64,000 nucleotides of DNA from Limnothrix sp. BL-A-16 (GCA_041937175.2 CP166615.1:192001-256000); one strand, 5' to 3'. Counted from the stretch's first letter, positions 6,106 through 45,610 are shown. The notes: generated from the letters alone by a model not told the origin. Numbers and translations are program-made.

Positions 6106-7635
6106 TCAATTGGCCTCCTGATCCAGCGCCTCGCGATCCGGATCGTCACCGTCGAAGTCTTCGTCTGCGGAGTCGTTCTCGGCTAGATCATCAGGGTCTG
6201 AATCATCGCTGTCTTGATCATCTTCCTCTTGATCATCCTCGTCAGCGTCCGCCGCCGAGTCTAGGGGAGCCTGCTCTTGATCGTCCTCAAGATCATCGCC
6301 ATCAAACTCATCGTCTGTTGCATCGTTTGCGGCTGCCGATGGGTCAATCTCTCCATGGCTGAACTCAGCGTCCTCGTCTGCAAAGTCGTCGCTTTCCGGT
6401 TCCTCGTCTGCAAAGTCGTCGGCTGCTTCGGCCGCTGCCAGGGCGAGGGCTGCCTCCCGTTCCGCCAGATAGCTGGCCATCTTGGCATCTTCTTCGTCGC
6501 GATCGTACTTAGCCACATCGCGAATATCGATTTTCCAGCCCGTGAGTCGAGCGGCCAGGCGCACGTTTTGCCCTTCTTTCCCGATCGCCAAACTGAGCTG
6601 ATCATCACCCACCAGCACATGGGCTTGGCGTTCCTCCGGATTCATCAGACGCACTTCCACCACCCGGGCCGGGCTGAGGGCATTGGCAATGTAGGTGGCC
6701 GGATCCGGTGACCACCGAATTACATCGATTTTTTCGCCCCGCAGTTCGTTCACAACCACCTGAATTCGCGACCCCCGGGCCCCAATGCAAGCCCCCACGG
6801 GATCCACATCTCGCTCCACCGTGTCCACAGCAATCTTGGTGCGCGGGCCCACATGGCGCGAGGGCGGGTTGGCTTCCCGAGCCACGGCCACAATTCGCAC
6901 AATGTCATCTTCAATTTCCGGCACTTCGTTGGCGAACAGATAAACCACCAACCCCGCATCGGCCCGGGAAACCAAGAGTTGCGGCCCCCGCTGGGATCCT
7001 TCGCAAACTTTCTTGAGGTAGACCTTGATGGTTCCGTTGGCGCGGTAGGTGTCGTTGGGCAACTGTTCTCGTTTGGGCAGCTCCGCTTCCACTTCCGGTT
7101 GGCCATAGCCGCTGGTGACGGCCACAATCACCGATTGGCGCTCGAACCGCAGGATTCGCCCTTGGAGCACCGTGCTTTCTAGCTCTTGGAATTCCTCTTG
7201 GATCAGCTTGCGCTGTTGGTCGCGTAGCTTTTGGGCCAACACTTGCTTGGTTTGGATGGCGGCCATGCGCCCAAAGTCATCCCGATCGGGAGTGACATCC
7301 AAAATCACCGTGTCGCCCAGTTGCGCTTCGGCGGCCACTTCTTGCACATCGCTGAGGGCGATTTCGTGGTCTGGGTCGGCCACTTCTTCCACAATGCTCT
7401 TGGTGGCCAAAACCCGGAAGCCCTCTTCTTCCGTGTCCAGTTCCACATCGAAGTTATCGAAGTAGGTTTCGTCAAAAATATTGCGCACATCCAAGCTTTG
7501 GGTGCGGCGATAACGCTCATAGCCCTTGAGCAGGGCTTCACGCAGGGCGGCTTCAACGGCGGTTTTCGGCAAGTTGCGTTCGCGGCTGATGCCGTCGATC
7601 ATTTCTTGCAGGCCGGTTAGGCGAACCATGGACAT
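6106..7635 (-). CDS. nusA: Transcription termination/antitermination factor NusA
   Basis: FGRMAAIQTKQV, DPVGACIGARGSRI, SLAIGKEGQNVRLAARLTGWKIDI; acidic tail; start MSMVRL inferred. Confidence 0.96.
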   Translation of the reverse strand: MSMVRLTGLQEMIDGISRERNLPKTAVEAALREALLKGYERYRRTQSLDVRNIFDETYFDNFDVELDTEEEGFRVLATKSIVEEVADPDHEIALSDVQEVAAEAQLGDTVILDVTPDRDDFGRMAAIQTKQVLAQKLRDQQRKLIQEEFQELESTVLQGRILRFERQSVIVAVTSGYGQPEVEAELPKREQLPNDTYRANGTIKVYLKKVCEGSQRGPQLLVSRADAGLVVYLFANEVPEIEDDIVRIVAVAREANPPSRHVGPRTKIAVDTVERDVDPVGACIGARGSRIQVVVNELRGEKIDVIRWSPDPATYIANALSPARVVEVRLMNPEERQAHVLVGDDQLSLAIGKEGQNVRLAARLTGWKIDIRDVAKYDRDEEDAKMASYLAEREAALALAAAEAADDFADEEPESDDFADEDAEFSHGEIDPSAAANDATDDEFDGDDLEDDQEQAPLDSAADADEDDQEEDDQDSDDSDPDDLAENDSADEDFDGDDPDREALDQEAN

Positions 7636-32833: not shown

Positions 32834-34115
32834 GGGATCGTGCGGGCGATCGCTGGGCTGTTTTGCGCCAACGGATTGCCGGAATTTCAATCGCCCAGTA
32901 GGTGAAGCTGGCCAGGGCGATCGATCCCAAAAACACCAACCCCAACCGTTCGCCATAGGCCACCAAGGGCGATCGGTTCGTGATCAACGGGCCGATCACC
33001 TTCAGTAAGGGATAGTGCCAAACATAAAGCCCAAAAGATAACAACCCGAGCAATTCCCAAGCCCTGAACGGATTAGCCGCCATGGCCGATCGGGAAAGGG
33101 GCCGGTTGCGTCCAGAGCTGAAATAAACCCGTCGTTCAAAGGCAAAAATAAACAGCCCCGTCGCCAACACCGTCAGCCCCGGAGCCACCAACAACACCCG
33201 ATCGCTCCCTTGATATTTCCACCAGGCGGCCAACCCATAAAGCAGCCCCATCGCCCCGATCGCCCAGCCTTTCCAGGGCAACCCCAGAATCGATCGGCTC
33301 CAAGCCAGGGTCACCCAGGGCCGAACCGGCAACCGTTGCCCTGGCTCGATCGGGTCTGTTTTGCCCTCCGCTAGGTCGATCGTTGGGAGTCGGTTTTGGT
33401 GTAGCTTTTGCATCAGCGGATTCAGCCAAAAACCCACCAGAAAGGCATCTAAATTGGCCGGCAAAAAAGTATAGATATAGCGAATAAAATAGGGATTGCC
33501 TTCCGTGCTACCCAATAATTGTTCAATTAACTCAAAAACTCCGAACCGATAGAGCATTAATCCACTGATCACCGCTGCCATGGCCACCAACAAGGACGGC
33601 CCGGTTTTCAGCCACCGCCGACTTGCCCAAAAAACGCAAGGGGCGATCGCATAAAATTGCACTTCCGTGGAAAGTGACCATAGGGGCGCATTAAACTCAA
33701 AGGGCAGAGAATGCTCATAGGTAAAAGTCAGCAACCGCAGCAAATGGCCCCAATGATTGGGTTGCCAACTGTGGGGATAAAACACCGCTGCCGATATCAA
33801 AATACAGGCATAGTAAAGCGGCAAAATTCGAGTGGCACGATTCTGAAAATATCGAATGATGCCAGGGCGATCGAGCCGATAGCGTTCGGTATAAAATCCC
33901 TTACCGATCAAATAGCCTGACAAGCAAAAAAACACCCGCACCGCCACGCCCCCCGGCGCAAACAGCACCCAACTCCAATCCTGTCCAGCCCAGACCAAGC
34001 TTTGGGCCGGCGGGCCGCAGTGGGCCACAATCACCAAACAGCAAGCCACCCCCCGCAAGGTCAGCAATGCGTCCCAACGGTTGGGCGGGCGCAAACCAGA
34101 ACCATCAGCAACCAT
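32814..34115 (-). CDS. Acyltransferase-3 (OafA-like) membrane O-acyltransferase
   Basis: LRGVA, FFCLSGYLI, RATRILPLY, WSLSTEVQFY, SFGLYVWH, IEIP. Confidence 0.88.
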   Translation of the reverse strand: MVADGSGLRPPNRWDALLTLRGVACCLVIVAHCGPPAQSLVWAGQDWSWVLFAPGGVAVRVFFCLSGYLIGKGFYTERYRLDRPGIIRYFQNRATRILPLYYACILISAAVFYPHSWQPNHWGHLLRLLTFTYEHSLPFEFNAPLWSLSTEVQFYAIAPCVFWASRRWLKTGPSLLVAMAAVISGLMLYRFGVFELIEQLLGSTEGNPYFIRYIYTFLPANLDAFLVGFWLNPLMQKLHQNRLPTIDLAEGKTDPIEPGQRLPVRPWVTLAWSRSILGLPWKGWAIGAMGLLYGLAAWWKYQGSDRVLLVAPGLTVLATGLFIFAFERRVYFSSGRNRPLSRSAMAANPFRAWELLGLLSFGLYVWHYPLLKVIGPLITNRSPLVAYGERLGLVFLGSIALASFTYWAIEIPAIRWRKTAQRSPARSLNDSNR

Positions 34116-34231
34116 GGCCAAGTGCCGCCAGCAAAACACTACGGTAAAGTAACACTACGGTTCACCGCTGCTCGCCCGTCGCGCTCTGTTCAGTCTCCTT
34201 TTCATTCAGTTTTTCCGGGGACAATTCACCC

Positions 34232-35650
34232 ATGCCTGCCCGTTGCGTTCCTTCCCGTGCTGAATTTTCCCTGAATGGACTGCTGCGATCGCTGCGGTGG
34301 GCAATGTCAGCGGGGGCGATCGCCCTGGTTTTGACCAGCGCTGGGGAAGTGGCTCGCGCCCAGTTACCGTTTCTGGATAACCTGCCGATTTTTGATATCT
34401 TTTCCCGGCCGGTCAAGGATGAATTTCCGCCCAGTCCGCTGGAACTGTTAGAGGCGGATCCGCTGCTGCCGGAGTTTCCGATGCAGCGGGAACTGTCGCC
34501 CACGGAGCGCGATCGGCTGCGTTTGGCCCTCGATGAATTGAACCTGCAAGCGGCGGCCACCCTGCGGGCCGGCAAAACCCTAGAGGCCTTCGCCCTTTGG
34601 AATCGAGAATTGCGATTGCGGCGGTTTTTGGGAGTGTTTGAAGAATTGCCGGCCCTGGGGCGGGTGGGCGAGCTGGCTTGGCGGGAAGGGGCCGTGGAAG
34701 AAACAAGGGTGGTGACCGATCGCATCAAGGCGATCCAAGCGGGGCAAACGGGCCCCAAACCGGTTTTGCCCGACGAACAACCGTTGCCCATCCCTGAAGA
34801 TCCGGCGCTGCTGGAGGCCCTGGGCTTGGCCTATTACCAAGTGCGTGCGCCCAAGTTGGCCTTGGCGGTGTTGGAACCGCGCCTGTTGATGGCCAGAACG
34901 GCCGATGATTCTACGGAAATTGAAAAATATCTGGTGGCGATCGGTCAATTGCGGGCCAGCCTGTTTGAGGATGCGGCCGCTGTGGATGCCTACCGGGAAC
35001 TGCTGGCGATCGAGCGGGCCAAAATTGCCGCCGGTCGTTGGGTGGTGGTGCCCGTGCCGCCGGGCACAGAACCCACGATTCCGCTCCATCGCCAGGCCGA
35101 GGTGCGCTATGCGCGGGAATTGGTGATGTTGCTGAATCGATCGCGCCAGTGGGATGAGGCGATCGCCGCCCAGCGCGATTTGTTGGGGGTCTATCAAGAA
35201 TTGGGGATTGTGCGGCTAATTCCGCCCTTGATGAGCGAGTTGGCCGCCAATTTTGACCGGGCCGATCGGGTGGAAGAAGCGGTGTTGCAATATCGCGAAA
35301 CGGCCGCCGCTGCCCGCTCCATCAAGCAGTTGGGCATTGCCCGAGAAGCGCTCGATCGCCTGGCCACTCTCTATCGCAGCCGCCCCGCCTTTGCCGACAA
35401 GCCCGATCTGCTGGCCAGTCTTTACATCAGCCTGTTGGAGCTGGCCCGCGAGGCGGCGGACGGCTACGGGATGATGGACACCTATGAAAAATTGGGTGAT
35501 TTGTTTGTGAGTTTGAACCAGCGCGATCGGGCCCGCATTGCCTACGAACAGGCGGCGATTTTGGCGAAGCAGTTGCAACACCGCGAAAGTTATTTCGCCC
35601 GCAAGCTCCAAGACCTGGGCCCCGCCCCCGCCCCCTTCAACCAACCGTAA
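34232..35650 (+). CDS. Exported TPR-like helical-repeat protein
   Basis: Signal-like segment ending ARA; TPR-like helices (ALGLAYYQ, EKLGDLF); start uncertain. Confidence 0.7.
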   Translation: MPARCVPSRAEFSLNGLLRSLRWAMSAGAIALVLTSAGEVARAQLPFLDNLPIFDIFSRPVKDEFPPSPLELLEADPLLPEFPMQRELSPTERDRLRLALDELNLQAAATLRAGKTLEAFALWNRELRLRRFLGVFEELPALGRVGELAWREGAVEETRVVTDRIKAIQAGQTGPKPVLPDEQPLPIPEDPALLEALGLAYYQVRAPKLALAVLEPRLLMARTADDSTEIEKYLVAIGQLRASLFEDAAAVDAYRELLAIERAKIAAGRWVVVPVPPGTEPTIPLHRQAEVRYARELVMLLNRSRQWDEAIAAQRDLLGVYQELGIVRLIPPLMSELAANFDRADRVEEAVLQYRETAAAARSIKQLGIAREALDRLATLYRSRPAFADKPDLLASLYISLLELAREAADGYGMMDTYEKLGDLFVSLNQRDRARIAYEQAAILAKQLQHRESYFARKLQDLGPAPAPFNQP

Positions 35651-35739
35651 TGGCTGGGTTTCCTAGGTTGCACTTGAAAGTTTCCAATCCCATAAATTTG
35701 CGAATTTTTGAAGGCATTGAGCACAGAAAACTCTCCTCA

Positions 35740-35870
35740 GAGGATGTCTGAGAAATATCTTTTAGTATGGGCTAAGGATCAATGACCGTGGGGACAAGGG
35801 GCTTAAGCCCCTTGTCTACGTCGATCCCTGGGGCGTACAGAGTAGCAATTTTGGCTTTTTAGACATCCTC
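35740..35870. mobile_element. MITE, family A, 131 bp, with a 3-bp TCA target duplication
   Basis: GAGGATGTCTGAGAAA ... TTTTTAGACATCCTC inverted ends, TCA on both sides, internal perfect palindrome GACAAGGGGCTTAAGCCCCTTGTC. Confidence 0.7.
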
Positions 35871-35889
35871 TCAGAAGTGCTAGACCTCC

Positions 35890-36972
35890 ATGCCAACCAG
35901 TTCCCAGCCAACTGATGATGCCGAGCAAACCCAAGCTGTCAGTTTTCCGCCGCTCACGGAAATTACGTTTGAGGAAGGCTATCTCGAAGCCGAGGAAATC
36001 CCATTTGCAGAATTGGCCCAACAGCAAGCTCAGAGCGAGGAACTATCAAGCCCAAAACCTCCCCAGATTCAGACCCTGCCTCTGGAGCCATTTACCTTTG
36101 AAACCGCTGCCCGATCGCCTGATCTGGAAATCCAGCGTTCTACAGGGAAAGCCCAGCAGTTCATTGAGCAATTGCCCAATGGGTTGACCCTAGCGATGGT
36201 GTTGATTCCCAGCGGCACGTTTCTGATGGGAGCACCTGAAGCAGAACCCCAATCTCGCGATAGCGAGCGCCCCCAGCATCTGGTGACAGTCCCTGAGTTT
36301 TTGATGGGGAGATATCCAATGACCCAAGCTCAATGGTGGGCGATCGCCGAGTTGCCCAAGGTCAACATTGACCTCAACCCCAATCCCGCAAAGTTCACAG
36401 AACATGACCGGGGCGATCGGGCTGAAAACCGCCCGGTGGAATGTGTCACTTGGCACGAAGCGATCGAAGCTTGCGATCGGCTCTCCCATGCCACTGGCCG
36501 CCCCTATGGTTTGCCCAGCGAAGCCCAGTGGGAATACGCTTGCCGTGCTGGAGCCACCAAGCCCACACCTTTTTGCTTTGGTGAACCAATCACGCCCGAG
36601 CTGGCGAACTACGACGGCAACTACACCTACGCCAACGGCCCCAAGGGAGCCTCTCGCCAGCGCACCACCGCCGTTGGCAGCTTTCCAGCCAATGCCTGGG
36701 GCCTGCATGATATGCACGGCAATGTTTGGGAATGGTGCGCTGATCTTTGGCACTCCAATTATCAGGGTGCGCCCACCGATGGCAGCGCCTGGACATCAGA
36801 TTCGACAAAAGATTCGCGGCCTTTGCGAGGCGGTTCCTGGAGCAGCAATCCCAGCAATTGTCGCTCTGCGGTTCGTGTCAAAAATTCACCGGACAGCCGC
36901 TTTAACTATGTCGGTTTTCGAGTTTGTTGTGCCGTTGCGCAGGCTCCCGAAGTGGGCTTGGTTGAAGAGTGA
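35890..36972 (+). CDS. FGE-sulfatase/SUMF1 (C-type-lectin-fold) domain protein 1
   Basis: GTFLMG, LPSEAQWEYACRAG, NAWGLHDMHGNVWEWC, RGGSW, VGFRV. Confidence 0.92.
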   Translation: MPTSSQPTDDAEQTQAVSFPPLTEITFEEGYLEAEEIPFAELAQQQAQSEELSSPKPPQIQTLPLEPFTFETAARSPDLEIQRSTGKAQQFIEQLPNGLTLAMVLIPSGTFLMGAPEAEPQSRDSERPQHLVTVPEFLMGRYPMTQAQWWAIAELPKVNIDLNPNPAKFTEHDRGDRAENRPVECVTWHEAIEACDRLSHATGRPYGLPSEAQWEYACRAGATKPTPFCFGEPITPELANYDGNYTYANGPKGASRQRTTAVGSFPANAWGLHDMHGNVWEWCADLWHSNYQGAPTDGSAWTSDSTKDSRPLRGGSWSSNPSNCRSAVRVKNSPDSRFNYVGFRVCCAVAQAPEVGLVEE

Positions 36973-37123
36973 TATAGGTATCTGGGAGCACGATCGGGAG
37001 GTAAGACCAATCTCCATATTCAACGACGATGATCGACTGGGTAGCCGCAATCCACGAATCATTGCGACTCGTTTTCCAAGCTTCCATCATCCCAAAAAGT
37101 GCAAGAGATCTTAATTTGTTGCC

Positions 37124-38032
37124 ATGTCCAGTGTTGCTAACCCTGCCGTGCGATTTGTGTTGCGCTACCGTTCGCGCAATGCCTTGCAATATGTCGAAGA
37201 CTTAGGTAACGGCATCACCCTGGAAATGCTAAAAATTCCCGGTGGCACATTTCTGATGGGATCGCCTGCTCATGAGCTAGGGCGTTATGAGGATGTGGGA
37301 GAAGAGCTGCACGCCGTCACCGTACCGGATTTTTTCCTAGGTAAATATCCAATCACCCAAGCCCAATGGCGAGCGATTTGTGCGCTGCCACCCGCTAATG
37401 CTGACTTAGTGCTGAATCCCAATCCCGCACAGTGTCTCAACGACTTTCAGGATGGAGAAACGGTGATTAGTACCGATCAGCGCCCCGTAGAGTACGTTAG
37501 TTGGCACGAAGCTACCGAAGCTTGCGCTCGCCTGGCCCAAGCCACTGGCCGCCCCTATTGTTTGCCCAGCGAAGCCCAGTGGGAATATGCCTGTCGTGCT
37601 GGGACAACCACGCCCTTTCACTTTGGCGAAACCCTCACTAGTGAAGTGGCGAATTACGATGCGGTGAGTTACGTTGAGTACGATGCCTACAGCCTTGGCT
37701 CCCAAGGAGAATATCGGCAAGAGACTACTCCGGTTGGCTACTTTCCGCCCAATGCTTGGGGCCTGCATGATATGCACGGCAATGTCTGGGAATGGTGCGC
37801 TGATCTTTGGCACTCTCACTATCAAGGTGCGCCCACCGATGGCAGCGCTTGGATCGTAGACGCGGAAAGCGATGCACGGCTTTTGCGGGGCGGTTCATGG
37901 TACTACAGCCCTGAGAATTGTCGCTCTGCGGTTCGTAGCTACTTTTCGCCGGAGAGCCTCAGTGCTGTTGTCGGTTTTCGAGTTTGTTGTGCCGTTGTGC
38001 GGACTCGCGAAGTGGGCTTGGTTGAAGAGTGA
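37124..38032 (+). CDS. FGE-sulfatase/SUMF1 (C-type-lectin-fold) domain protein 2
   Basis: Same motifs; the 3' part is colinear with gene 1 at an offset of 1060 bp. Confidence 0.92.
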   Translation: MSSVANPAVRFVLRYRSRNALQYVEDLGNGITLEMLKIPGGTFLMGSPAHELGRYEDVGEELHAVTVPDFFLGKYPITQAQWRAICALPPANADLVLNPNPAQCLNDFQDGETVISTDQRPVEYVSWHEATEACARLAQATGRPYCLPSEAQWEYACRAGTTTPFHFGETLTSEVANYDAVSYVEYDAYSLGSQGEYRQETTPVGYFPPNAWGLHDMHGNVWEWCADLWHSHYQGAPTDGSAWIVDAESDARLLRGGSWYYSPENCRSAVRSYFSPESLSAVVGFRVCCAVVRTREVGLVEE

Positions 38033-38162
38033 TGTAGGCTTGCATGGGAGCATGATCGGGAGGAAATCACCATCTCCATTCATCTCCCATGCACCGCTAC
38101 TAACGTTGGTTTAAGTTGCTCAAACCTAGTACTGAGAAGAGAAGCGGCTCTAAGGCTCAAGA

Positions 38163-38558
38163 CTATTTTGGCGGCGGGGTTGGTTTATCGGGAAATTTGC
38201 ATTTCACTTCGATGCCAAAGTCGTAGTCCATGGAGCCGCGCACCAAAAAGGGAATCCCACTTTGTCCACCGATTTTGACGTTGAATTTCACGGTCATTTC
38301 TTCAACGTTGGCAGTAGAAAATTGCCGAAAAGCGCCGATGCAAAATAGGGCATAGCCGCGCAGTTGCTTATGGGCTTCCTTGAGCTTGGCTTCCACGAAG
38401 GAGGGATTATCATCATCGCCACCCCGCCTTCCCCTGCCATCTTCTGAGCGATTTGAGCGATCGGGAACTGTGGATTCCCCATCGGCTGACGCGAACAAGA
38501 TAGTGTATTCTTCTCCAGTTTCAGGATCTTTGAAAAACAATGACTCAGGCACGGACAT
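38163..38558 (-). CDS. CU044_2847 / Trypco1-like peptidase-co-occurring protein
   Basis: About 131 aa with 'NVEEMTVKFNVKIGGQSGIPFL...FGIEVKCKF', matching my recollection of the family signature. Confidence 0.7.
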   Translation of the reverse strand: MSVPESLFFKDPETGEEYTILFASADGESTVPDRSNRSEDGRGRRGGDDDNPSFVEAKLKEAHKQLRGYALFCIGAFRQFSTANVEEMTVKFNVKIGGQSGIPFLVRGSMDYDFGIEVKCKFPDKPTPPPK

Positions 38559-38626
38559 AGCCAACCTCGCAGACTTAAGAAATATCGGATATCTTAGGTA
38601 AAGTTTACCGTAACCCAAATTAGTCC

Positions 38627-41600
38627 ATGCCTAAGAAAGCCCTAGTCATTGGAATTTCACAGTTTGATGATGTGGGCTTCCGATCATTAACCTGCGATCG
38701 CGATCTAGATCGAATTAGCGCATGGTTTAAGACACAGAATTATGATGTCAAAATCGCTCCCGAACTTTATAGCCAAGAAACACAAGAAATCTATCCCGAC
38801 CCAAAAGGGAAGCTTAATTACAATAACCTTAGAAATGAGCTAAAAAGATTCTTAACAGAAACAGTTAGGGGCTGTGAGTTGGCAGTGGTTTACATTGCCA
38901 GTCATGGTTGCTTGAAAACAGATGATAATGATGAGCCAGTGGCTTGTCTGGTGGCATCTGACACACCCAAGAAAAAGGAAGATAAAAATAAGACTTATCT
39001 GTTGGCAAGCTTGGCCAAGCTATTCGAGACTGCTGATGTTAATAATTTAGTGGGGATTTTTGATTTTTGCCATGCAGGGGCGATCACTGATCTAATTGAA
39101 GAAGTTGAAGCATCTTTTAAAAGACAAAAAAATTATGTTTTATTGGCGGCCTGTCACGCCAGCGAATCGGCATTTGACACCCAAGAAGGCGGTGTTTTCA
39201 CAACAGTATTATTAGAAGGACTGTCTCCTCAAAATGTAGACGAAAAGGGACGAATAACTGCGGCAAAATTATGTGATTTTGTACGAACGCGCCTAGGGAA
39301 TAGCGGTCAAACGGCCCGATGTCTTCCGGGGAAAGAGCTTTTAGCGATCGGGCAGTACGATCGCGCTGAAATCGAGACGGCGCAGGCGGCCACGGTTGAT
39401 CCGAAGCCGGAGCGGGGGCTGGAGCTGCCTGTGGGGTTTCGGCGGGTGGCGGAGTTGGTGGCGAAGGCAGAGTCGATTCAGCCGAGCCAAACCCAGTTTT
39501 ATCAGGCGACGGCTCCCCACTGGAGCGACATCAAGGCGAACTGTGATGCGCCGCGTGATTTGTATGCCGAGGTGAAGCAGTTTGTAATTGATCGACTCGA
39601 TCCAAAGTATTGGGCGATCGACCCGTTGGATGACACGTTTCGGCTGCCCCCTGTGCCCTTGGGGGTGATTGTGGGGCGGGGTGGCGAGGGCAAGAGCACC
39701 CTGTTGATGCGGGTGGCGGCGGATTTGGCGGCGGCGGGCTATGAAGTTTGGTGGCGGGAGGAGCGGCTGTCGGGGCTGAATGTGACGGCGTTGGCGACAA
39801 TGCCGCAGCCTGATCGGCCGGTGTTGGTTTGTGTGGATGAGTTGTTGTCTGGGGATGAGGAGGAGTTGCTGGGGGGTTTGATGCAGCTCTACCGGCAGAG
39901 CACGCCGTTGGTGTTGCTGGGAACGGTGCGGCAAGAGTTGTGGCGAGGGCAAATTGAGGAGCGGGCGGGGGGCGAAACCGAGATCGCTGCCTTTAAGTTT
40001 GGGGCGCTTGGCCCGTCGGAGCTAGAGGCGATCGTGGCCAAGCTGGAGGCGGCGAACAAGCTGGGGGAGTTGGCCAAGCTGGAGCCGGCCGAACGGGTGC
40101 AGCATCTGTTGACCAAGGCGGATGGTCAGTTGCTGATCTTGTTGTGTGAAGTTTGCGATCGAGAAGGTGTGAAAGCGCTGGTGCAGCGGAATTTGGATGC
40201 GCTGAAAAGCCAAAACCCCAATGGTGAGCTGGTGGTCGAAGCCTGCCAATATGTGGCGCTATTGCATAGTTTTGGCTTGGAAATGCCGCACACCCATTTG
40301 GGAAAGTTGTTGAATTTCAAAACAGATTTTGAACATATCAAGAAAGTTTTGAAGAGAACTCAGGGATTTTTAGAAGTTAGACGCACGTCAGAGGTTGATT
40401 GGTTTCAGACTCGTCATGCTTATGTAGCTGACATTATGGTTGAAGCTATGGTTAAGTCTCTAGAAGAAGATATTTATGATCGAATTTCGTCGTTTTTAAC
40501 GAATGCCATTAATGAATTTCAAGGTGAGCTGGTTCAGCCCTTTCTGAAAGTTCTAACCAGTCAGTGGCAGCTACTTCAGTTAGATATTGAATTGCTGAGG
40601 CGAGTCTTCGGGAGTTTAAATAAATCTTCGACAGTTCAGAAGGTGATTCTCAGTATTTGGGCAAATTTAGAAGCTTCTCTCAGCAATATCGAAGGAGCAA
40701 GAGATCTTTTCCGACAAGCTGTAGAGGCCGATCTAGACGATCCTAGATCGCTACAGATGTGGGCGGATTTTGAAGCAAGGCAGAATGAGCTAGAACAAGC
40801 CAGAAAACTGCTAGAGCAAGCTGTTGCACTCAATCATCAATATCGATTTGCTTGGACTAGTTTGTTAAAGCTTGAAAGACGCTGTAACAATCTGGAGCGA
40901 GCGCGGGAGATATTCCAATTGCTGTGGGAGCAGCAACCGGAAAACATCAGCCATCTAATTGACTGGATTGATTTTGAAACGCAACAGCGTAATTGGGATG
41001 ATGTTCGAGAACTATTAGAGCGAGCAACTAGCTTGCCAGGGATTCATGTTGGTCTATTTCATCGATGGATCAGGCTAGAAAAGCAGCAAGGAAATTATGC
41101 AAAAGCCTTAGCTATCTGTGAACGAGCTTTAGAGCAACATGCTGGCAATATCAGTTTGTTGCTTGCAGAAGCTATTTTGCATAGGCAAAGCGGCAACCCC
41201 GATCGCGCGAGAGAACTGTTCGAGCGAGCGAGCCAAGCCAATCCAAGCGATGCACCCGTTTGGCAAGCCTGGGCGTTGTTTGAGAAAGAGCAGCGCAACC
41301 CCGATCGTGCGAGAGAACTGTTCGAGCGAGCGAGCCAAGCCGACCCCAGTAATGCACCCGTTTGGCAAGCCTGGGCGTTGTTTGAGAAAGAGCAGCGCAA
41401 CCCCGATCGCGCGAGAGAACTGTTCGAGCGAGCCAGCCAAGCCGACCCCAGTCATGCACCCGTTTGGCAAGCCTGGGCGTTGTTTGAGAAAGAGCAGCGC
41501 AACCCCGATCGCGCGAGAGAACTGTTCGAGCGAGCCAGCCAAGCCGACCCCAGTCATGCACCCGTTTGGCAAGCCTGGGCGTTGTTTGAGAAAGAGCAGC

Positions 41601-43582
41601 GCAACCCCGATCGCGCGAGAGAACTGTTCGAGCGAGCCAGCCAAGCCGACCCCAGTAATGCACCCACCTTGCAAGCCTGGGCGTTGTTTGAGAAAGAGCA
41701 GCGCAACCCCGATCGCGCGAGAGAACTGTTCGAGCGAGCGAGCCAAGCCGACCCCAGTCATGCACCCGTTTGGCAAGCCTGGGCGTTGTTTGAGAAAGAG
41801 CAGCGCAACCCCGATCGCGCGAGAGAACTGTTCGAGCGAGCCAGCCAAGCCAATCCAAGCGATGCACTCACCTTGCAAGCCTGGGCGTTGTTTGAGAAAG
41901 AGCAGCGCAACCCCGATCGCGCGAGAGAACTGTTCGAGCGAGCCAGCCAAGCCAATCCAAGCGATGCACTCACCTTGCAAGCCTGGGCGTTGTTTGAGAA
42001 AGAGCAGCGCAACCCCGATCGCGCGAGAGAACTGTTCGAGCGAGCCAGCCAAGCCGACCCCAGTCATGCACCCACCTTGCAAGCCTGGGCGTTGTTTGAG
42101 AAAGAGCAGCGCAACCCCGATCGTGCGAGAGAACTGTTCGAGCGAGCCAGCCAAGCCGACCCCAGTAATGCACCCGTTTGGCAAGCCTGGGCGTTGTTTG
42201 AGAAAGAGCAGCGCAACCCCGATCGCGCGAGAGAACTGTTCGAGCGAGCCAGCCAAGCCGACCCCAGTCATGCACCCGTTTGGCAAGCCTGGGCGTTGTT
42301 TGAGAAAGAGCAGCGCAACCCCGATCGCGCGAGAGAACTGTTCGAGCGAGCCAGCCAAGCCGACCCCAGTAATGCACCCACCTTGCAAGCCTGGGCGTTG
42401 TTTGAGAAAGAGCAGCGCAACCCCGATCGCGCGAGAGAACTGTTCGAGCGAGCCAGCCAAGCCAATCCAAGCGATGCACCCACCTTGCAAGCCTGGGCGT
42501 TGTTTGAGAAAGAGCAGCGCAACCCCGATCGCGCGAGAGAACTGTTCGAGCGAGCCAGCCAAGCCGACCCCAGTCATGCACCCACCTTGCAAGCCTGGGC
42601 GTTGTTTGAGAAAGAGCAGCGCAACCCCGATCGCGCGAGAGAACTGTTCGAGCGAGCCAGCCAAGCCGACCCCAGTCATGCACCCACCTTGCAAGCCTGG
42701 GCGTTGTTTGAGAAAGAGCAGCGCAACCCCGATCGCGCGAGAGAACTGTTCGAGCGAGCCAGCCAAGCCGACCCCAGTCATGCACCCACCTTGCAAGCCT
42801 GGGCGTTGTTTGAGAAAGAGCAGCGCAACCCCGATCGCGCGAGAGAACTGTTCGAGCGAGCCAGCCAAGCCGACCCCAGTAATGCACCCACCTTGCAAGC
42901 CTGGGCGTTGTTTGAGAAAGAGCAGCGCAACCCCGATCGCGCGAGAGAACTGTTCGAGCGAGCCAGCCAAGCCGACCCCAGTAATGCACCCGTTTGGCAA
43001 GCCTGGGGGTGGATGGAAAAAGAACAGGGCAACCTCAAACAAGCCCGGTCTCTGTTGCAACAAGCCTTGGCACTCGACCCCAGCAATGCCGTTGTTTGCC
43101 GCTCCCTCACGGAATTGGAAGTCGAGCAACAAAACTGGGAAGCAGCCCTCGACTATGCCAACCGCTCCATTGCTGGCAAACACAAAGAGGAACGATACCG
43201 GCGAGAGGTGGTGGCCTTGCGCGCCAAAATCCACCTCGCCTTAGGCAACCCAGAACTAGCCAGCGCCGACTTTCGCTATTTGGATCAAGCCCTGCAAGCC
43301 CAACTCGCCCAACAGCCCCACAGCGTGCCCTTGATGGTGCAACGGGCCCAACATCTGATCCAATGGGGCCAATGCAACCCTGCCAAATGGGCCGAAGCCG
43401 CCACCCTGCTGACCCAAGCCGCAAAACTCGCCAGCCCTAGGCAAAAACTCTATGTGCTGAACGCCCAAGGGGAACTGGCCCTAGCCCAGGGCGATCGTCG
43501 CAGTGCGATCAAATATTGGGACTCCGCCCTGCGCCACGATCCCACCTTCGCCCCCGCCCGCCAAAACCGTGATCGCGCCTAA
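38627..43582 (+). CDS. Caspase-like (C14) protease + P-loop (STAND-like) NTPase + HAT/TPR repeat protein
   Basis: KKALVIGI, YIASHG (His), FDFCHAG (Cys), LAAC; Walker A GRGGEGKST; Walker B VLVCVDE; sensor-like LLGTVR; more than 20 C-terminal 34-aa repeats. Confidence 0.88.
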   Translation: MPKKALVIGISQFDDVGFRSLTCDRDLDRISAWFKTQNYDVKIAPELYSQETQEIYPDPKGKLNYNNLRNELKRFLTETVRGCELAVVYIASHGCLKTDDNDEPVACLVASDTPKKKEDKNKTYLLASLAKLFETADVNNLVGIFDFCHAGAITDLIEEVEASFKRQKNYVLLAACHASESAFDTQEGGVFTTVLLEGLSPQNVDEKGRITAAKLCDFVRTRLGNSGQTARCLPGKELLAIGQYDRAEIETAQAATVDPKPERGLELPVGFRRVAELVAKAESIQPSQTQFYQATAPHWSDIKANCDAPRDLYAEVKQFVIDRLDPKYWAIDPLDDTFRLPPVPLGVIVGRGGEGKSTLLMRVAADLAAAGYEVWWREERLSGLNVTALATMPQPDRPVLVCVDELLSGDEEELLGGLMQLYRQSTPLVLLGTVRQELWRGQIEERAGGETEIAAFKFGALGPSELEAIVAKLEAANKLGELAKLEPAERVQHLLTKADGQLLILLCEVCDREGVKALVQRNLDALKSQNPNGELVVEACQYVALLHSFGLEMPHTHLGKLLNFKTDFEHIKKVLKRTQGFLEVRRTSEVDWFQTRHAYVADIMVEAMVKSLEEDIYDRISSFLTNAINEFQGELVQPFLKVLTSQWQLLQLDIELLRRVFGSLNKSSTVQKVILSIWANLEASLSNIEGARDLFRQAVEADLDDPRSLQMWADFEARQNELEQARKLLEQAVALNHQYRFAWTSLLKLERRCNNLERAREIFQLLWEQQPENISHLIDWIDFETQQRNWDDVRELLERATSLPGIHVGLFHRWIRLEKQQGNYAKALAICERALEQHAGNISLLLAEAILHRQSGNPDRARELFERASQANPSDAPVWQAWALFEKEQRNPDRARELFERASQADPSNAPVWQAWALFEKEQRNPDRARELFERASQADPSHAPVWQAWALFEKEQRNPDRARELFERASQADPSHAPVWQAWALFEKEQRNPDRARELFERASQADPSNAPTLQAWALFEKEQRNPDRARELFERASQADPSHAPVWQAWALFEKEQRNPDRARELFERASQANPSDALTLQAWALFEKEQRNPDRARELFERASQANPSDALTLQAWALFEKEQRNPDRARELFERASQADPSHAPTLQAWALFEKEQRNPDRARELFERASQADPSNAPVWQAWALFEKEQRNPDRARELFERASQADPSHAPVWQAWALFEKEQRNPDRARELFERASQADPSNAPTLQAWALFEKEQRNPDRARELFERASQANPSDAPTLQAWALFEKEQRNPDRARELFERASQADPSHAPTLQAWALFEKEQRNPDRARELFERASQADPSHAPTLQAWALFEKEQRNPDRARELFERASQADPSHAPTLQAWALFEKEQRNPDRARELFERASQADPSNAPTLQAWALFEKEQRNPDRARELFERASQADPSNAPVWQAWGWMEKEQGNLKQARSLLQQALALDPSNAVVCRSLTELEVEQQNWEAALDYANRSIAGKHKEERYRREVVALRAKIHLALGNPELASADFRYLDQALQAQLAQQPHSVPLMVQRAQHLIQWGQCNPAKWAEAATLLTQAAKLASPRQKLYVLNAQGELALAQGDRRSAIKYWDSALRHDPTFAPARQNRDRA
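41195..43030 (+). repeat. 18 x 102-bp intragenic tandem repeat
   Basis: AACCCCGATCG recurs every 102 bp from 41195 to 42929. Confidence 0.97.
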
Positions 43583-43645
43583 CTGATCGCCCCTAGCCGG
43601 TTGAATGGGGGATAGGGTCTCTACCTTGCACCGCAACCCGTGAGC

Positions 43646-45610
43646 CTAGATCGGAATTTCGATCGTGAACGTGGTTCCCTCCTGGGCCGTTGAATGGCAA
43701 CGGAGCGATCCTTGGTGCTGTTCCTGCACAATTTGGTAGCTGATGGCCAAACCCAGCCCCGTGCCCTGGCCGATCGGCTTGGTGGTGTAAAACGGCTCAA
43801 AAATCTTCGATTGCAGCGCTTCGGGAATGCCCAAGCCGTTGTCCTGGATGGCAATTTGCACCCGATCGGGCTGGCTGAGGCGCGTGATGATTCGCAATTG
43901 GGGCGCAAATCCGGCTCCCTCCTGGGCCCAGCGATCGCCCAAGGCATCGATCGCATTGCTCAACAGATTCATCAACACCTGATTGAGCTGATTGGCGTGG
44001 CAAGTGACTGGGGGCAAATCACCATAGTCCTTAGTCACTTGAATGGCCGGGCGATCGCCCTGATCAATCAATCGGTGATTCAAAATCATCAATGTGTTGT
44101 CTAGCCCCTCATGCAAATCCACCGCCTTCATGCTGGACTCATCCAAGCGGGAAAAATTCCGCAGCCCCAACACAATATTGGTAATTCGTTGGCAACCGGA
44201 TTGCAACGAGCCGAGCACTTGCGGTAAATCGGCGATCAGGAAGTCGAAATCCAGATCCTCCAGGCGATCGCGCATGGCCGGCGAAAGATTGGGGTATTCC
44301 GCTTGATAGGCCTGAACAATGCTCACCAAATCCTGGAAATAGGTTTCCATGTGGTACAAATTCCCCGCAATGAACGCCGTGGGGTTATTGATTTCATGGG
44401 CAATTCCGGCCACCATTTGCCCCAAGCTCGACATCTTTTCCGCTTGGATGAGTTGGGCTTGGGTTTGGCGCAACCGCTGGAGTGTTTCTTGGAGTTTGGC
44501 GGTGCGTTCTTCCACCTTTTGTTCCAAGGAAAAATTGGCCGCTTGCAAGGCTTCGGCCCGGCGATGGGCTTCCATGGCAATGCTGGCCAAGCTGGCGGCG
44601 GTGTTGATTACCTCTCGGTGATAGGCCGTGGGCTGGCAGGGAAACCGGTGCGACAGGGCAAAGGTTCCCAGCACTTCGCCATTGGCCGCCAAAAAGGGTG
44701 ACGACCAACAGGCGCGGATCCCATGGCTGAGGGCAAAGTCTCGAAAGGGCGACCAAAGGGGGTTGGTAGCAATGTCCGTGGCAAAGACCGGCTCGCCGCG
44801 ATAGGCCGCCGTGCCGCAGGATCCGGCACATTCGCCAATCATCAACCCATCAACCCCTTGGGCAAATTCCGTGGGCAGGCTGGGGGCGGCTCCGGCTCGC
44901 AGGCATTTTTGCTCGGGATCCAAGACCAAGATTGAGCAATAGGCTCCGGGCAGTTCCTGTTCCAGCAGTTCACAGAGTTGATTGAAAACGAATTGCAGCT
45001 TGCTCCCCTTAGCGATCGAACCGAGGACGCGGCTTTGGGTGTCGATCAATGCTTCCGATCTCCGCCGTTCGATCGCCCCCGCCAGCACATTGGTCACGGC
45101 TTGCAGGAAGTAAACGTCATCTTCCGAGAACGATCGGGGCTGTTCGTGATGAACTTCCAGCAGCCCCAGCAGTTGATCGCGGCCCACCACGCCCAGCAGC
45201 AAACCGCTTTGGCTGTTGGCGGGCAAGGGCAGGGGAAAGTTTTGTAAATCGTGACCTAAGGGCACATTCGCCGCCAGCAATTGCGATTCCACGCTGAAGA
45301 GCGATTGCACCAAGGGCACATTCGCCACGCTGACTTCCATGGGTTCGTTGGCGGCGGCGGGAATGGTGGCCACACGCCGCAGGGACTGGCGATCGGACAA
45401 CACGCGCCAAATGCTGCTGTAGGAAATTTTCAGCACCTCTGTCACCGCTTGCACAGCCCGCTCAAACAGGCGATCGAGCTGATTTTCCAGCAAGGCCCAC
45501 TGGCTTAAGGCTGTGATCACCATTTGTGAATTGCGATCGCTCAAGCAAGAGTAGGTCGCGCGATCGGGAGCCGTCAACGGAGAGTGGATAGCAGGATTAG
45601 CAAAGCTCAT
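43646..45610 (-). CDS. GAF-GAF sensor histidine kinase
   Basis: Two GAF domains, H-box AGIAHEINNP, N-box NLLSNAIDA, DNGLG, FEPFYTTK, GTGLGL. Confidence 0.92.
   Translation of the reverse strand: MSFANPAIHSPLTAPDRATYSCLSDRNSQMVITALSQWALLENQLDRLFERAVQAVTEVLKISYSSIWRVLSDRQSLRRVATIPAAANEPMEVSVANVPLVQSLFSVESQLLAANVPLGHDLQNFPLPLPANSQSGLLLGVVGRDQLLGLLEVHHEQPRSFSEDDVYFLQAVTNVLAGAIERRRSEALIDTQSRVLGSIAKGSKLQFVFNQLCELLEQELPGAYCSILVLDPEQKCLRAGAAPSLPTEFAQGVDGLMIGECAGSCGTAAYRGEPVFATDIATNPLWSPFRDFALSHGIRACWSSPFLAANGEVLGTFALSHRFPCQPTAYHREVINTAASLASIAMEAHRRAEALQAANFSLEQKVEERTAKLQETLQRLRQTQAQLIQAEKMSSLGQMVAGIAHEINNPTAFIAGNLYHMETYFQDLVSIVQAYQAEYPNLSPAMRDRLEDLDFDFLIADLPQVLGSLQSGCQRITNIVLGLRNFSRLDESSMKAVDLHEGLDNTLMILNHRLIDQGDRPAIQVTKDYGDLPPVTCHANQLNQVLMNLLSNAIDALGDRWAQEGAGFAPQLRIITRLSQPDRVQIAIQDNGLGIPEALQSKIFEPFYTTKPIGQGTGLGLAISYQIVQEQHQGSLRCHSTAQEGTTFTIEIPI

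Follow-up and report, generated by a model that had tools for sequence, protein, structure and literature searches.

Kaur et al. (2020; PMC7159879) defined the small proteins of the Trypco1 and Trypco2 families by their location next to trypsin-like peptidases, and in the same work caspases are paired with alpha/beta-hydrolases or with EACC1. Evans et al. (2025; bioRxiv 10.1101/2025.11.14.688446) renamed both Trypco families Pepco and describe them as accompanying serine or cysteine proteases in cyanobacteria and actinobacteria. For the SsPepco-SsAvs4 system from Streptomyces subrutilus, the same authors report that SsPepco forms 9- to 10-mer beta-barrels and is lethal once the trypsin-like domain of SsAvs4 has removed a charged, proline-rich tail of ~2 kDa after Ile97. 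Here, we analyzed a locus from the complete 4.56-Mb genome of the cyanobacterium Limnothrix sp. BL-A-16 (G000, 100% complete), which lies in a stretch of 64,000 nucleotides (nt) that was studied as a whole and is called the window (G000:C1:192001-256000). At this locus, a miniature inverted-repeat transposable element (MITE), two genes for FGE-domain proteins (FGE1 and FGE2), a Trypco1-like gene, and a gene for a caspase-STAND protein follow one another between conserved core genes. An earlier note on this DNA had described this contiguous order, in which all five elements were confirmed, and had read it as one multi-component conflict island or else as a chance juxtaposition of remnants. Our data point to a different composition. 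It is likely that the Trypco1 and caspase-STAND genes form a complete two-gene Pepco-protease module (cassette A), that the MITE and the FGE genes are an unrelated, MITE-bounded operon stump (cassette B), and that both cassettes have been gained and lost independently in one variable intergenic spot.

Among the described systems, cassette A is a caspase-linked nSTAND5-HAT/TPR version of the known Pepco-protease-STAND kind. As in SsPepco-SsAvs4, a small Trypco1-family protein with a short C-terminal tail of proline and charged residues is encoded beside a protease that also carries a STAND NTPase and a repeat sensor. However, the protease is a caspase-like C14 cysteine peptidase and not trypsin-like, the two genes are divergent and not co-directional, the NTPase is of the nSTAND5 type and carries a HAT/TPR array, and the module is known here from sequence alone. 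A further likeness exists to the EACC1-caspase two-gene systems (“System 4” of Kaur et al., 2020; EACC1-KrAvs12 of Evans et al., 2025), which share the constant N-terminal caspase with variable STAND and repeat parts and which include a small, protease-activated membrane effector, whose predicted counterpart here is Trypco1. In contrast to these systems, no EACC1 gene is present at the locus, where Trypco1 is found instead. The best NCBIfam match of the caspase domain is the EACC1-associated type (NF047832), with 51.4 bits and thus far below the cut-off of 140. Because this type nevertheless scores best, the sequence comparison suggests that a Pepco effector has here taken the position of EACC1 in other systems.

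The Two Genes of Cassette A

The Trypco1 gene of cassette A (38163..38558, minus strand) encodes a Trypco1/Pepco-family protein of 131 amino acids (aa), which belongs to a caspase-linked subfamily and lies above the curated cut-offs of PF19493 (46.3 bits vs. 24.6) and of NCBIfam NF041216, the CU044_2847 family (50.6 bits vs. 23). Since the aligned homologues all begin with MS..E.L.F, the start codon was corrected from TTG 38618 to ATG 38558, which has a GAGG 8 nt in front of it. With this start, the divergent intergenic region common to both genes of cassette A therefore comprises 68 nt (38559..38626; this region, the cassettes, and the MITE are given without strand). The C-terminus of the protein is conserved (..NFEIEVKCKFP) and is followed by a short Pro/Lys tail. 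A search of PDB sequences with the Trypco1 profile gave no match at E<=1. In the monomer model, which is of low confidence, an N-terminal hairpin is followed by a disordered stretch (residues 24-51), a helix (52-78), a long hairpin (87-121), and a free tail.

The divergent partner gene (38627..43582, plus strand) encodes a protein of 1651 aa, for which Pfam recognizes an N-terminal caspase-like Peptidase_C14 domain (PF00656; residues 3-224, 38633..39298, plus strand; 47.4 bits vs. a cut-off of 21.4) and an nSTAND5 P-loop NTPase core (nSTAND_NTPase5, PF25199; residues 290-444, 39494..39958, plus strand; 61.9 bits vs. 34), and which ends in a TPR/HAT sensor part. The catalytic dyad, His93 (..ASHG..) and Cys148 (..DFCHAG..), is invariant in 59 aligned partners, and both Walker A (GRGGEGKST) and Walker B (LVCVDEL) are intact in the translation. 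The domain calls of the earlier note were correct.

The sensor part contains 18 tandem, near-identical TPR/HAT units of 34 aa (41195..43030, plus strand), which Tandem Repeats Finder reports as a 102-nt unit in 18.1 copies with 95% matches (41193-43034). The units share a mean pairwise nt identity of 94% and comprise eight distinct aa versions including the diverged terminal unit, whereby variation among the 17 internal units is confined to 5 of the 34 positions (D/N, H/N/D, P/L, V/T, W/L) and to seven combinations. Because near-identical repeats differ at so few positions, the array suggests a sensor that is diversified by recombination, i.e., by repeat shuffling, which the earlier note had proposed and which appears to be a fair reading; near-identical repeats of this kind would let the sensor change through such shuffling. 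A similar pattern is reported for fungal NLRs, in which WD, ANK, or TPR repeats are highly conserved internally. According to Dyrka et al. (2014; PMC4986451), the TPR repeats of these proteins show high internal repeat conservation with few hypervariable positions, which is ascribed to concerted evolution together with diversifying selection. Here likewise, a STAND protein carries near-identical C-terminal repeats of the TPR type with few variable positions, but the protein is bacterial, and the likeness concerns the repeat pattern and not selection.

Full-length relatives of the caspase-STAND protein are rare. Among 41 related genomes, one is found only in the same-genus genome G002 (77% identity), and a search of 1.84 billion representatives yielded 709 matches at E<=1e-3, of which few cover caspase and NTPase in full length, the best of these at 30% (P0013). 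The G002 protein has a short repeat array with a similarity of only 70-77%, which is divided between two overlapping frames, and this much shorter, diverged array is the only sign of a repeat-number polymorphism. In this orthologue (L014 8815-11995, G002:C100, minus strand) the overlapping frames have 890 and 286 aa and are both of the TPR/HAT type; the two frames result from a frameshift within the array or from repeats that collapsed in the short-read assembly.

Conserved Pairing of Trypco1 and Caspase Genes

For a pattern scan, six close relatives of Trypco1 were aligned and compared with a single genome of each species. The scan returned 151 stretches, 114 of which were confirmed, and 80 loci were kept; one locus (L015, from Limnothrix redekei) is the same contig as G002:C100 and is thus not independent of it. 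According to open reading frame (ORF) calls, 74 of the 80 loci have a large minus-strand gene in divergent orientation at a distance of up to 600 nt upstream, the remaining six being L049, L056, L062, L072, L089, and L092, some of which are cut by contig ends. Pfam was run on the first residues (up to 590) of the 74 upstream neighbours and detected Peptidase_C14 in 70 of them. Thus, the pairing with a caspase is conserved, mostly in the form caspase-nSTAND1-WD40. The neighbours lacking Peptidase_C14 are those of L016 (ISL3 transposase), L059 and L082 (nSTAND1 only), and L074 (5'-nucleotidase). nSTAND1 is present in 63 of the 74 neighbours and is replaced in single loci by nSTAND5 (L015), NB-ARC (L077), or GUN4 (L078), and WD40 propellers were found in the C-terminal parts of 29 of the 48 complete partners. 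The spacing is conserved as well, with start codons 66-70 nt apart in 41 of 76 related loci that have an upstream minus-strand gene.

Domain content, catalytic residues, gene pairing, and the swapping of NTPase and sensor can be read from these sequences, on which Trypco1 and the caspase appear as the constant part of the module, with NTPase and sensor being exchangeable. The window lineage carries the rarer nSTAND5-HAT/TPR version. In this way, a cyanobacterial Pepco/Trypco1 clade is documented with counts, in which the constant partner is a caspase-like protease instead of trypsin and the NTPase and sensor parts (nSTAND1-WD40, nSTAND5-HAT/TPR, NB-ARC, GUN4) are freely swapped; such a caspase-linked clade may already be depicted in the figures or supplements of Evans et al. 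(2025). The genes on the far side of Trypco1 are unrelated (157-aa ORF, GH116, Uma2, HD, kinase). They were considered as a third component and rejected, and because these downstream neighbours are unrelated housekeeping genes, cassette A is regarded as a two-gene unit.

Some single loci show particular arrangements. At L016, the ISL3 transposase (6813-7514) occupies the expected place of the caspase gene. The L078 gene (5901-7793) codes for a caspase-GUN4 protein that has no STAND domain, and the L077 gene (5351-7930) for a caspase in which nSTAND1 is replaced by an NB-ARC match that remains sub-threshold (27.4 bits, cut-off 23.5, no stretch passing). In one Nostoc locus (L037, 8714-10645), a second caspase gene, encoding a caspase-TPR protein of 643 aa, is located just downstream of Trypco1 on the same strand.

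Independent Occurrence of Cassettes A and B

In a blastn comparison of the window with G002, positions 33001-35741 are matched at 94% and positions 38142-40734 at 80.6%, with nothing in between. G002 keeps the Trypco1 and caspase genes between the same flanks and has 29 bp where the 2.4-kb block of MITE, FGE1, and FGE2 lies in the window (cassette B, 35742..38141). The converse arrangement is present in contigs of the runs X2 (lake water) and X10 (organism A), which join position 38052 to position 43630 with 149 other letters in place of the 5.6-kb cassette A (38053..43629) and which keep FGE1 and FGE2. This joint has a depth of 30.9 in X2 (side 71) and of 13 in X10 (side 255), and record 14 of X10 covers 35842-38052 together with 43630-44411. 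The FGE1-FGE2 part of X10 has 29 differences in 2211 nt. Run X1 has a near-zero contig depth over cassette A and no listed joint and was not counted as a case of cassette B only, and run X3 covers parts of both cassettes at low depth. In G001, which belongs to the same genus, neither a Trypco1 nor a caspase-STAND homologue was found; its flanks are located on different contigs, have about 73% nt identity, and give no empty-site picture. Overall, cassettes A and B segregate INDEPENDENTLY, and because each block occurs without the other in close relatives (A only in G002, B only in X2 and X10), we consider them independent.

The wider set of genomes gave the same picture. With a profile built from the four FGE genes of the genome, no FGE gene was detected within 8 kb in any of the 80 loci of the cassette A type, even at E<=10. 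As a control, FGE1 and FGE2 themselves were matched by this profile at about 1e-124, and nine loci from other genera yielded 17 FGE ORFs at E<=1e-84. The earlier note had proposed to examine the gene neighbourhoods of homologues and the presence or absence of the island among close strains. In the neighbourhoods, caspase homologues occur together with Trypco1 (70 of 74) but not with FGE (0 of 80), by which the outcome that the note had named as a refutation is reached by half, and in the close strains the two blocks are found separately, so that the claim of one multi-component system has to be given up in favor of two independent cassettes. Its alternative, a chance juxtaposition of remnants, is adequate for the FGE half. 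The adjacency of the cassettes is best explained by a shared variable intergenic hotspot. A plausible “multi-component island” can therefore be two cassettes that share one variable spot, and presence/absence data from close strains settle such a question quickly.

Origin of Cassette B and Its Variable Patches

FGE1 (35890..36972, plus strand; 360 aa) consists of a linker and an FGE/C-type-lectin-fold domain (PF03781, E 8.8e-54) and is followed by FGE2 (37124..38032, plus strand; 302 aa; PF03781, E 4.7e-52). The two genes are tandem paralogues with 74-84% nt identity. Residues 4-360 of FGE1, including the linker FPPLTEITFEEGYL, align to residues 573-917 of a 921-aa protein from the related genome G003 with 59% identity (E 3e-149), whereas the N-terminal ~570 residues of the full-length relatives are missing. 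Because FGE1 aligns only to the last third of this long component, it is a 5'-truncated remnant whose break coincides with the MITE; what has remained of the ~900-aa long component, which belongs to a VMAP/MoxR-type ternary operon, is its C-terminal third. FGE2 is 67% identical over its whole length to a 304-aa short FGE protein of G003, and its nearest relative among the 41 related genomes is G003:C6:218809-219672 (70%). VMAP/DGR-type operons, DGR standing for diversity-generating retroelement, end in a short stand-alone FGE gene, of which FGE2 is a full-length orthologue.

By coordinates, at least 7 of the 41 related genomes (G003, G005, G007, G009, G015, G018, G024) have FGE homologues no more than 10 kb away from a Trypco1 gene. 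Four of these loci were identified by Pfam as the canonical VMAP ternary operon, which comprises Trypco1, a protein with Trypsin_2 and VMAP-C (~600 aa), an AAA_5 MoxR-like protein (~340 aa), an FGE-ending protein of ~900 aa, and one or two short FGE genes. Of the VMAP ternary systems of Kaur et al. (2020; Trypco1 / trypsin-VMAP / MoxR / vWA-FGS), the window contains only the 3' stump, and FGE1 and FGE2 share 59-67% identity with the two genes that close an operon of this kind in G003. VMAP-C (PF20028) has no match in the whole complete genome, and no AAA_5 (MoxR) or trypsin gene is located between the flanks of the island. In this respect the earlier note, which had stated that MoxR and vWA are absent, was right, and VMAP can be added to the list. 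A vWA domain was not detected by Pfam in the full-length relatives of FGE1, for which the label “vWA component” goes back to Kaur et al. (2020). Cassette B thus consists of a MITE and of what is left of a VMAP/MoxR-type operon at its 3' end, and it is in all likelihood not a working part of cassette A.

The differences between FGE1 and FGE2 are not evenly distributed. Upstream of codon ~290 they are mostly found at third codon positions, whereas in the last 70 codons they cluster at positions 1 and 2, between the identical blocks GGSW, CRSAVR, and VGFRVCC. Here, each gene contains a DGR-type variable-region-like patch (FGE1: 36829..36921; FGE2: 37889..37981; both plus strand), which in FGE1 as in FGE2 is collinear with the template repeat/variable region (TR/VR) sets of three DGRs from the related genome G018. 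In that genome, three reverse transcriptases of ~360 aa sit between FGE homologues, and each template repeat encodes GGSW-NNN-P-RN-CRSAxR-NNN-...-NNN-GFR. For five TR/VR pairs of G018, the mismatches at template adenines amount to 10/10, 14/14, 15/16, and 17/18 (94-100%) and, in the fifth pair, to 14/18. The window patches share the 31-codon GGSW...GFR frame, and 10 of the 12 aa differences between FGE1 and FGE2 lie on template AAY/AGG codons that are mutated in G018. Because of this codon pattern, FGE1 and FGE2 are genuine DGR-type targets by descent. They resemble the DGR variable proteins with a C-type-lectin/FGE fold (TvpA type) in the 31-codon scaffold, in the position of the differences on G018 template codons, and in the presence of a long-plus-short target pair; one long and one short C-type lectin (CLec) target per DGR locus are described by Dore et al. 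(2024; PMC10907252).

In contrast to DGR systems, reverse transcriptase, template repeat, and accessory gene are all missing from this genome. RVT_1 gave no match in the complete genome, the same search being positive in 3 of 14 genomes as a control; it was also without a match in G003, G005, and G015. A template repeat was not found, and the 3' ends of FGE1 and FGE2 match only each other and a third FGE gene. Because reverse transcriptase and template repeat are both missing, no retro-diversification takes place here at present, and the variable patch is a fossil or is served from elsewhere. Thus, when the earlier note spoke of retroelement-diversified FGE folds, it was right about the class of the proteins, as judged from the codon pattern, but not about a current process. 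The FGE stump presents a clean example of a DGR target that has outlived its retroelement.

G018 itself holds three complete DGRs, L103 (G018:C46), L104 (C3), and L105 (C73). In two of these loci, the ~360-aa reverse transcriptase has an FGE target on either side, both served by one template repeat, and in the third locus only one target was seen.

Proposed Mechanism and Alternative Explanations

By analogy to SsPepco-SsAvs4, we infer a defence role of cassette A that would proceed from sensing via tail cleavage to pore formation. The TPR/HAT array of the 1651-aa protein would bind a trigger, probably a phage protein, upon which the nSTAND5 NTPase would oligomerise and the N-terminal caspase-like domains would become active. 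The caspase would then remove the short C-terminal tail from the 131-aa Trypco1/Pepco protein, which is encoded divergently, and the trimmed Trypco1 might act as a membrane pore and kill the infected cell. If the analogy is true, such modules would be caspase-gated pore toxins and a close bacterial parallel to the caspase/gasdermin logic.

Several observations weigh against this reading or limit it. Many of the 80 loci come from closely related Nostoc genomes, and the figure of 70 of 74 overstates the independent support for the pairing. The Pepco case that has been tested, SsPepco, uses a serine protease, so that Pepco cleavage by a cysteine protease would be an extension by analogy. Compared with SsPepco, the window Trypco1 fits poorly in its ~50-residue N-terminal extension, and its tail after the conserved EVKCKFP is KPTPPPK, i.e., 7 residues, unstructured in the low-confidence model, against a tail of about 2 kDa in SsPepco. 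Pepcos linked to serine proteases have a conserved isoleucine at the cut site, for which no evident equivalent exists in Trypco1, and there is no single conserved P1 residue in the Trypco1 tails. The Asp of KFPD was considered as a conserved caspase cut site and rejected, the motif KxKFPD being present in 11 of 81 sequences. The monomer model of Trypco1 is poor (mean predicted local distance difference test score of 55.4), and its fold is tentative. No PADLOC model (2023 library) matches cassette A; its TPR region gave only two weak matches to unrelated models (PrimPol, PDC-M71B), each with no stretch passing. Furthermore, the cassettes are adjacent in this one strain, where cross-talk is possible as far as the sequence can tell, and the reading frames of FGE1 and FGE2 are intact and 98.7% conserved in X10, so the remnant may not be inert. 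The predicted complex of the caspase domain and Trypco1 reached scores of 0.31, 0.20, and 0.15 compared to a mark of 0.32, was made without controls, and speaks neither for nor against binding.

Of the alternative explanations, the one that concerns cassette B is the most probable, although we consider it rather unlikely. FGE1 and FGE2 might still function by themselves as formerly DGR-diversified, ligand-binding proteins, possibly still altered by a DGR in trans in the population, or might serve another system in the genome. Their intact frames with complete FGE domains would fit this, as would the maintenance of cassette B at about 98.7% identity in X10, its flank-like contig depth in X1, X2, and X10, and the presence of two further FGE genes in the genome. 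In addition, the three listed strain differences inside FGE2 (37914, 37963, and 37965; runs X1, X2, and X10) fall in codons 264, 280, and 281, all of them DGR-mutable patch codons, but since 40 of 165 strain differences are shown, this “3 of 3” comes from a small, selected sample and is a hint and not a result. Against a living cassette B stand the lack of RVT_1, template repeat, and VMAP-C in the complete genome and the ~570 N-terminal residues that FGE1 has lost. Improbable, in our view, is an explanation in which cassette A serves as a cell-death or stress-response switch of a filamentous cyanobacterium and not against phages, or in which Trypco1 is an adaptor or regulator of the caspase instead of its pore-forming substrate. 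Trypco domains figure as co-occurring or “adapter” domains in Kaur et al. (2020) and Dore et al. (2024), Evans et al. (2025) mention possible stress-response roles for related modules, and the flanks of the locus are signalling and housekeeping genes without a defence island. However, SsPepco was shown to be a toxic effector that is activated by tail removal (Evans et al., 2025), and cassette A has features that are typical of defence genes, namely its variable presence within one genus (found in G000 and G002, not in G001), its stronger divergence from G002 in comparison with the flanks (80.6% vs. 93-94% nt identity), and the shuffling repeat sensor.

Least credible is the view that FGE1, FGE2, Trypco1, and caspase-STAND constitute one hybrid conflict system, in which free-standing diversified FGE folds would act as extra sensors or adaptors and replace MoxR-vWA. 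The genes are contiguous in this strain, Trypco1 and short FGE genes share operons in other cyanobacteria (the at least 7 of 41 related genomes and four Pfam-confirmed loci mentioned above), the gene order in G005 is FGE-FGE-Trypco1, and Evans et al. (2025) list FGE among the sensors that are fused to Pepco-linked proteases. Yet the FGE-sharing operons use another, trypsin-VMAP-linked Trypco1 subfamily, of which the example in the own genome is 17% identical to the window Trypco1, and in the four loci analyzed by Pfam they always include trypsin-VMAP and MoxR. None of the 80 loci of the caspase-linked subfamily holds an FGE gene, either block occurs by itself in close relatives, FGE1 is a truncated stump with the MITE at its border, and FGE2 and Trypco1 are convergent and not co-transcribed. 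The presence/absence data have thus already largely refuted a hybrid system. A related idea seems just as far-fetched to us: the stranded FGE1 and FGE2 could have been co-opted by the caspase-STAND/Pepco module, e.g., as soluble decoys or co-sensors, which would make the locus a fresh hybrid of a formerly DGR-diversified binder and a repeat-shuffling NLR-like protease, with the linked notion that the patches are still rewritten by a DGR elsewhere in the population.

Flanking Genes and Further Observations

The locus is flanked by a core gene for a 472-aa protein (34232-35650; 98% aa identity in G002) and by a core gene for a GAF histidine kinase (43646-45610; 96%). Both are conserved in the genus and are, as the earlier note had put it, ordinary genes. 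The MITE copy (35733..35877) marks the left border of cassette B, directly next to the 5' end at which FGE1 is truncated. It is 145 nt long and has imperfect 22-nt inverted arms (35733-35754 and 35856-35877) that are 82% complementary. According to blastn, the family has 90 genome copies of at least 120 nt, this one included, with a median identity of 82%, and 55 copies of 60-119 nt. Being short and non-coding, with terminal inverted repeats and many copies, the element is a MITE. At this position the short-read contigs of all four runs break, and the bin depth rises about 40- to 80-fold.

A second Trypco1 gene is located 2.6 Mb away in the same genome (G000:C1:2871071-2874022; L001 7071-10022, minus strand). 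It encodes a protein of 106 aa with 17% identity to the window Trypco1 and heads a co-directional operon together with the genes for a Trypsin_2 protein (366 aa) and a CBS-domain protein (506 aa), a classical trypsin-linked layout without VMAP or MoxR. Directly after the FGE2 stop codon, a 17-nt inverted repeat is found (38034-38100). The segment 38041-38100 recurs with 80-84% identity at three other places in the genome, one of them beside the third FGE gene (C1:41464-41519), and may be a shared terminator or a small repeat.

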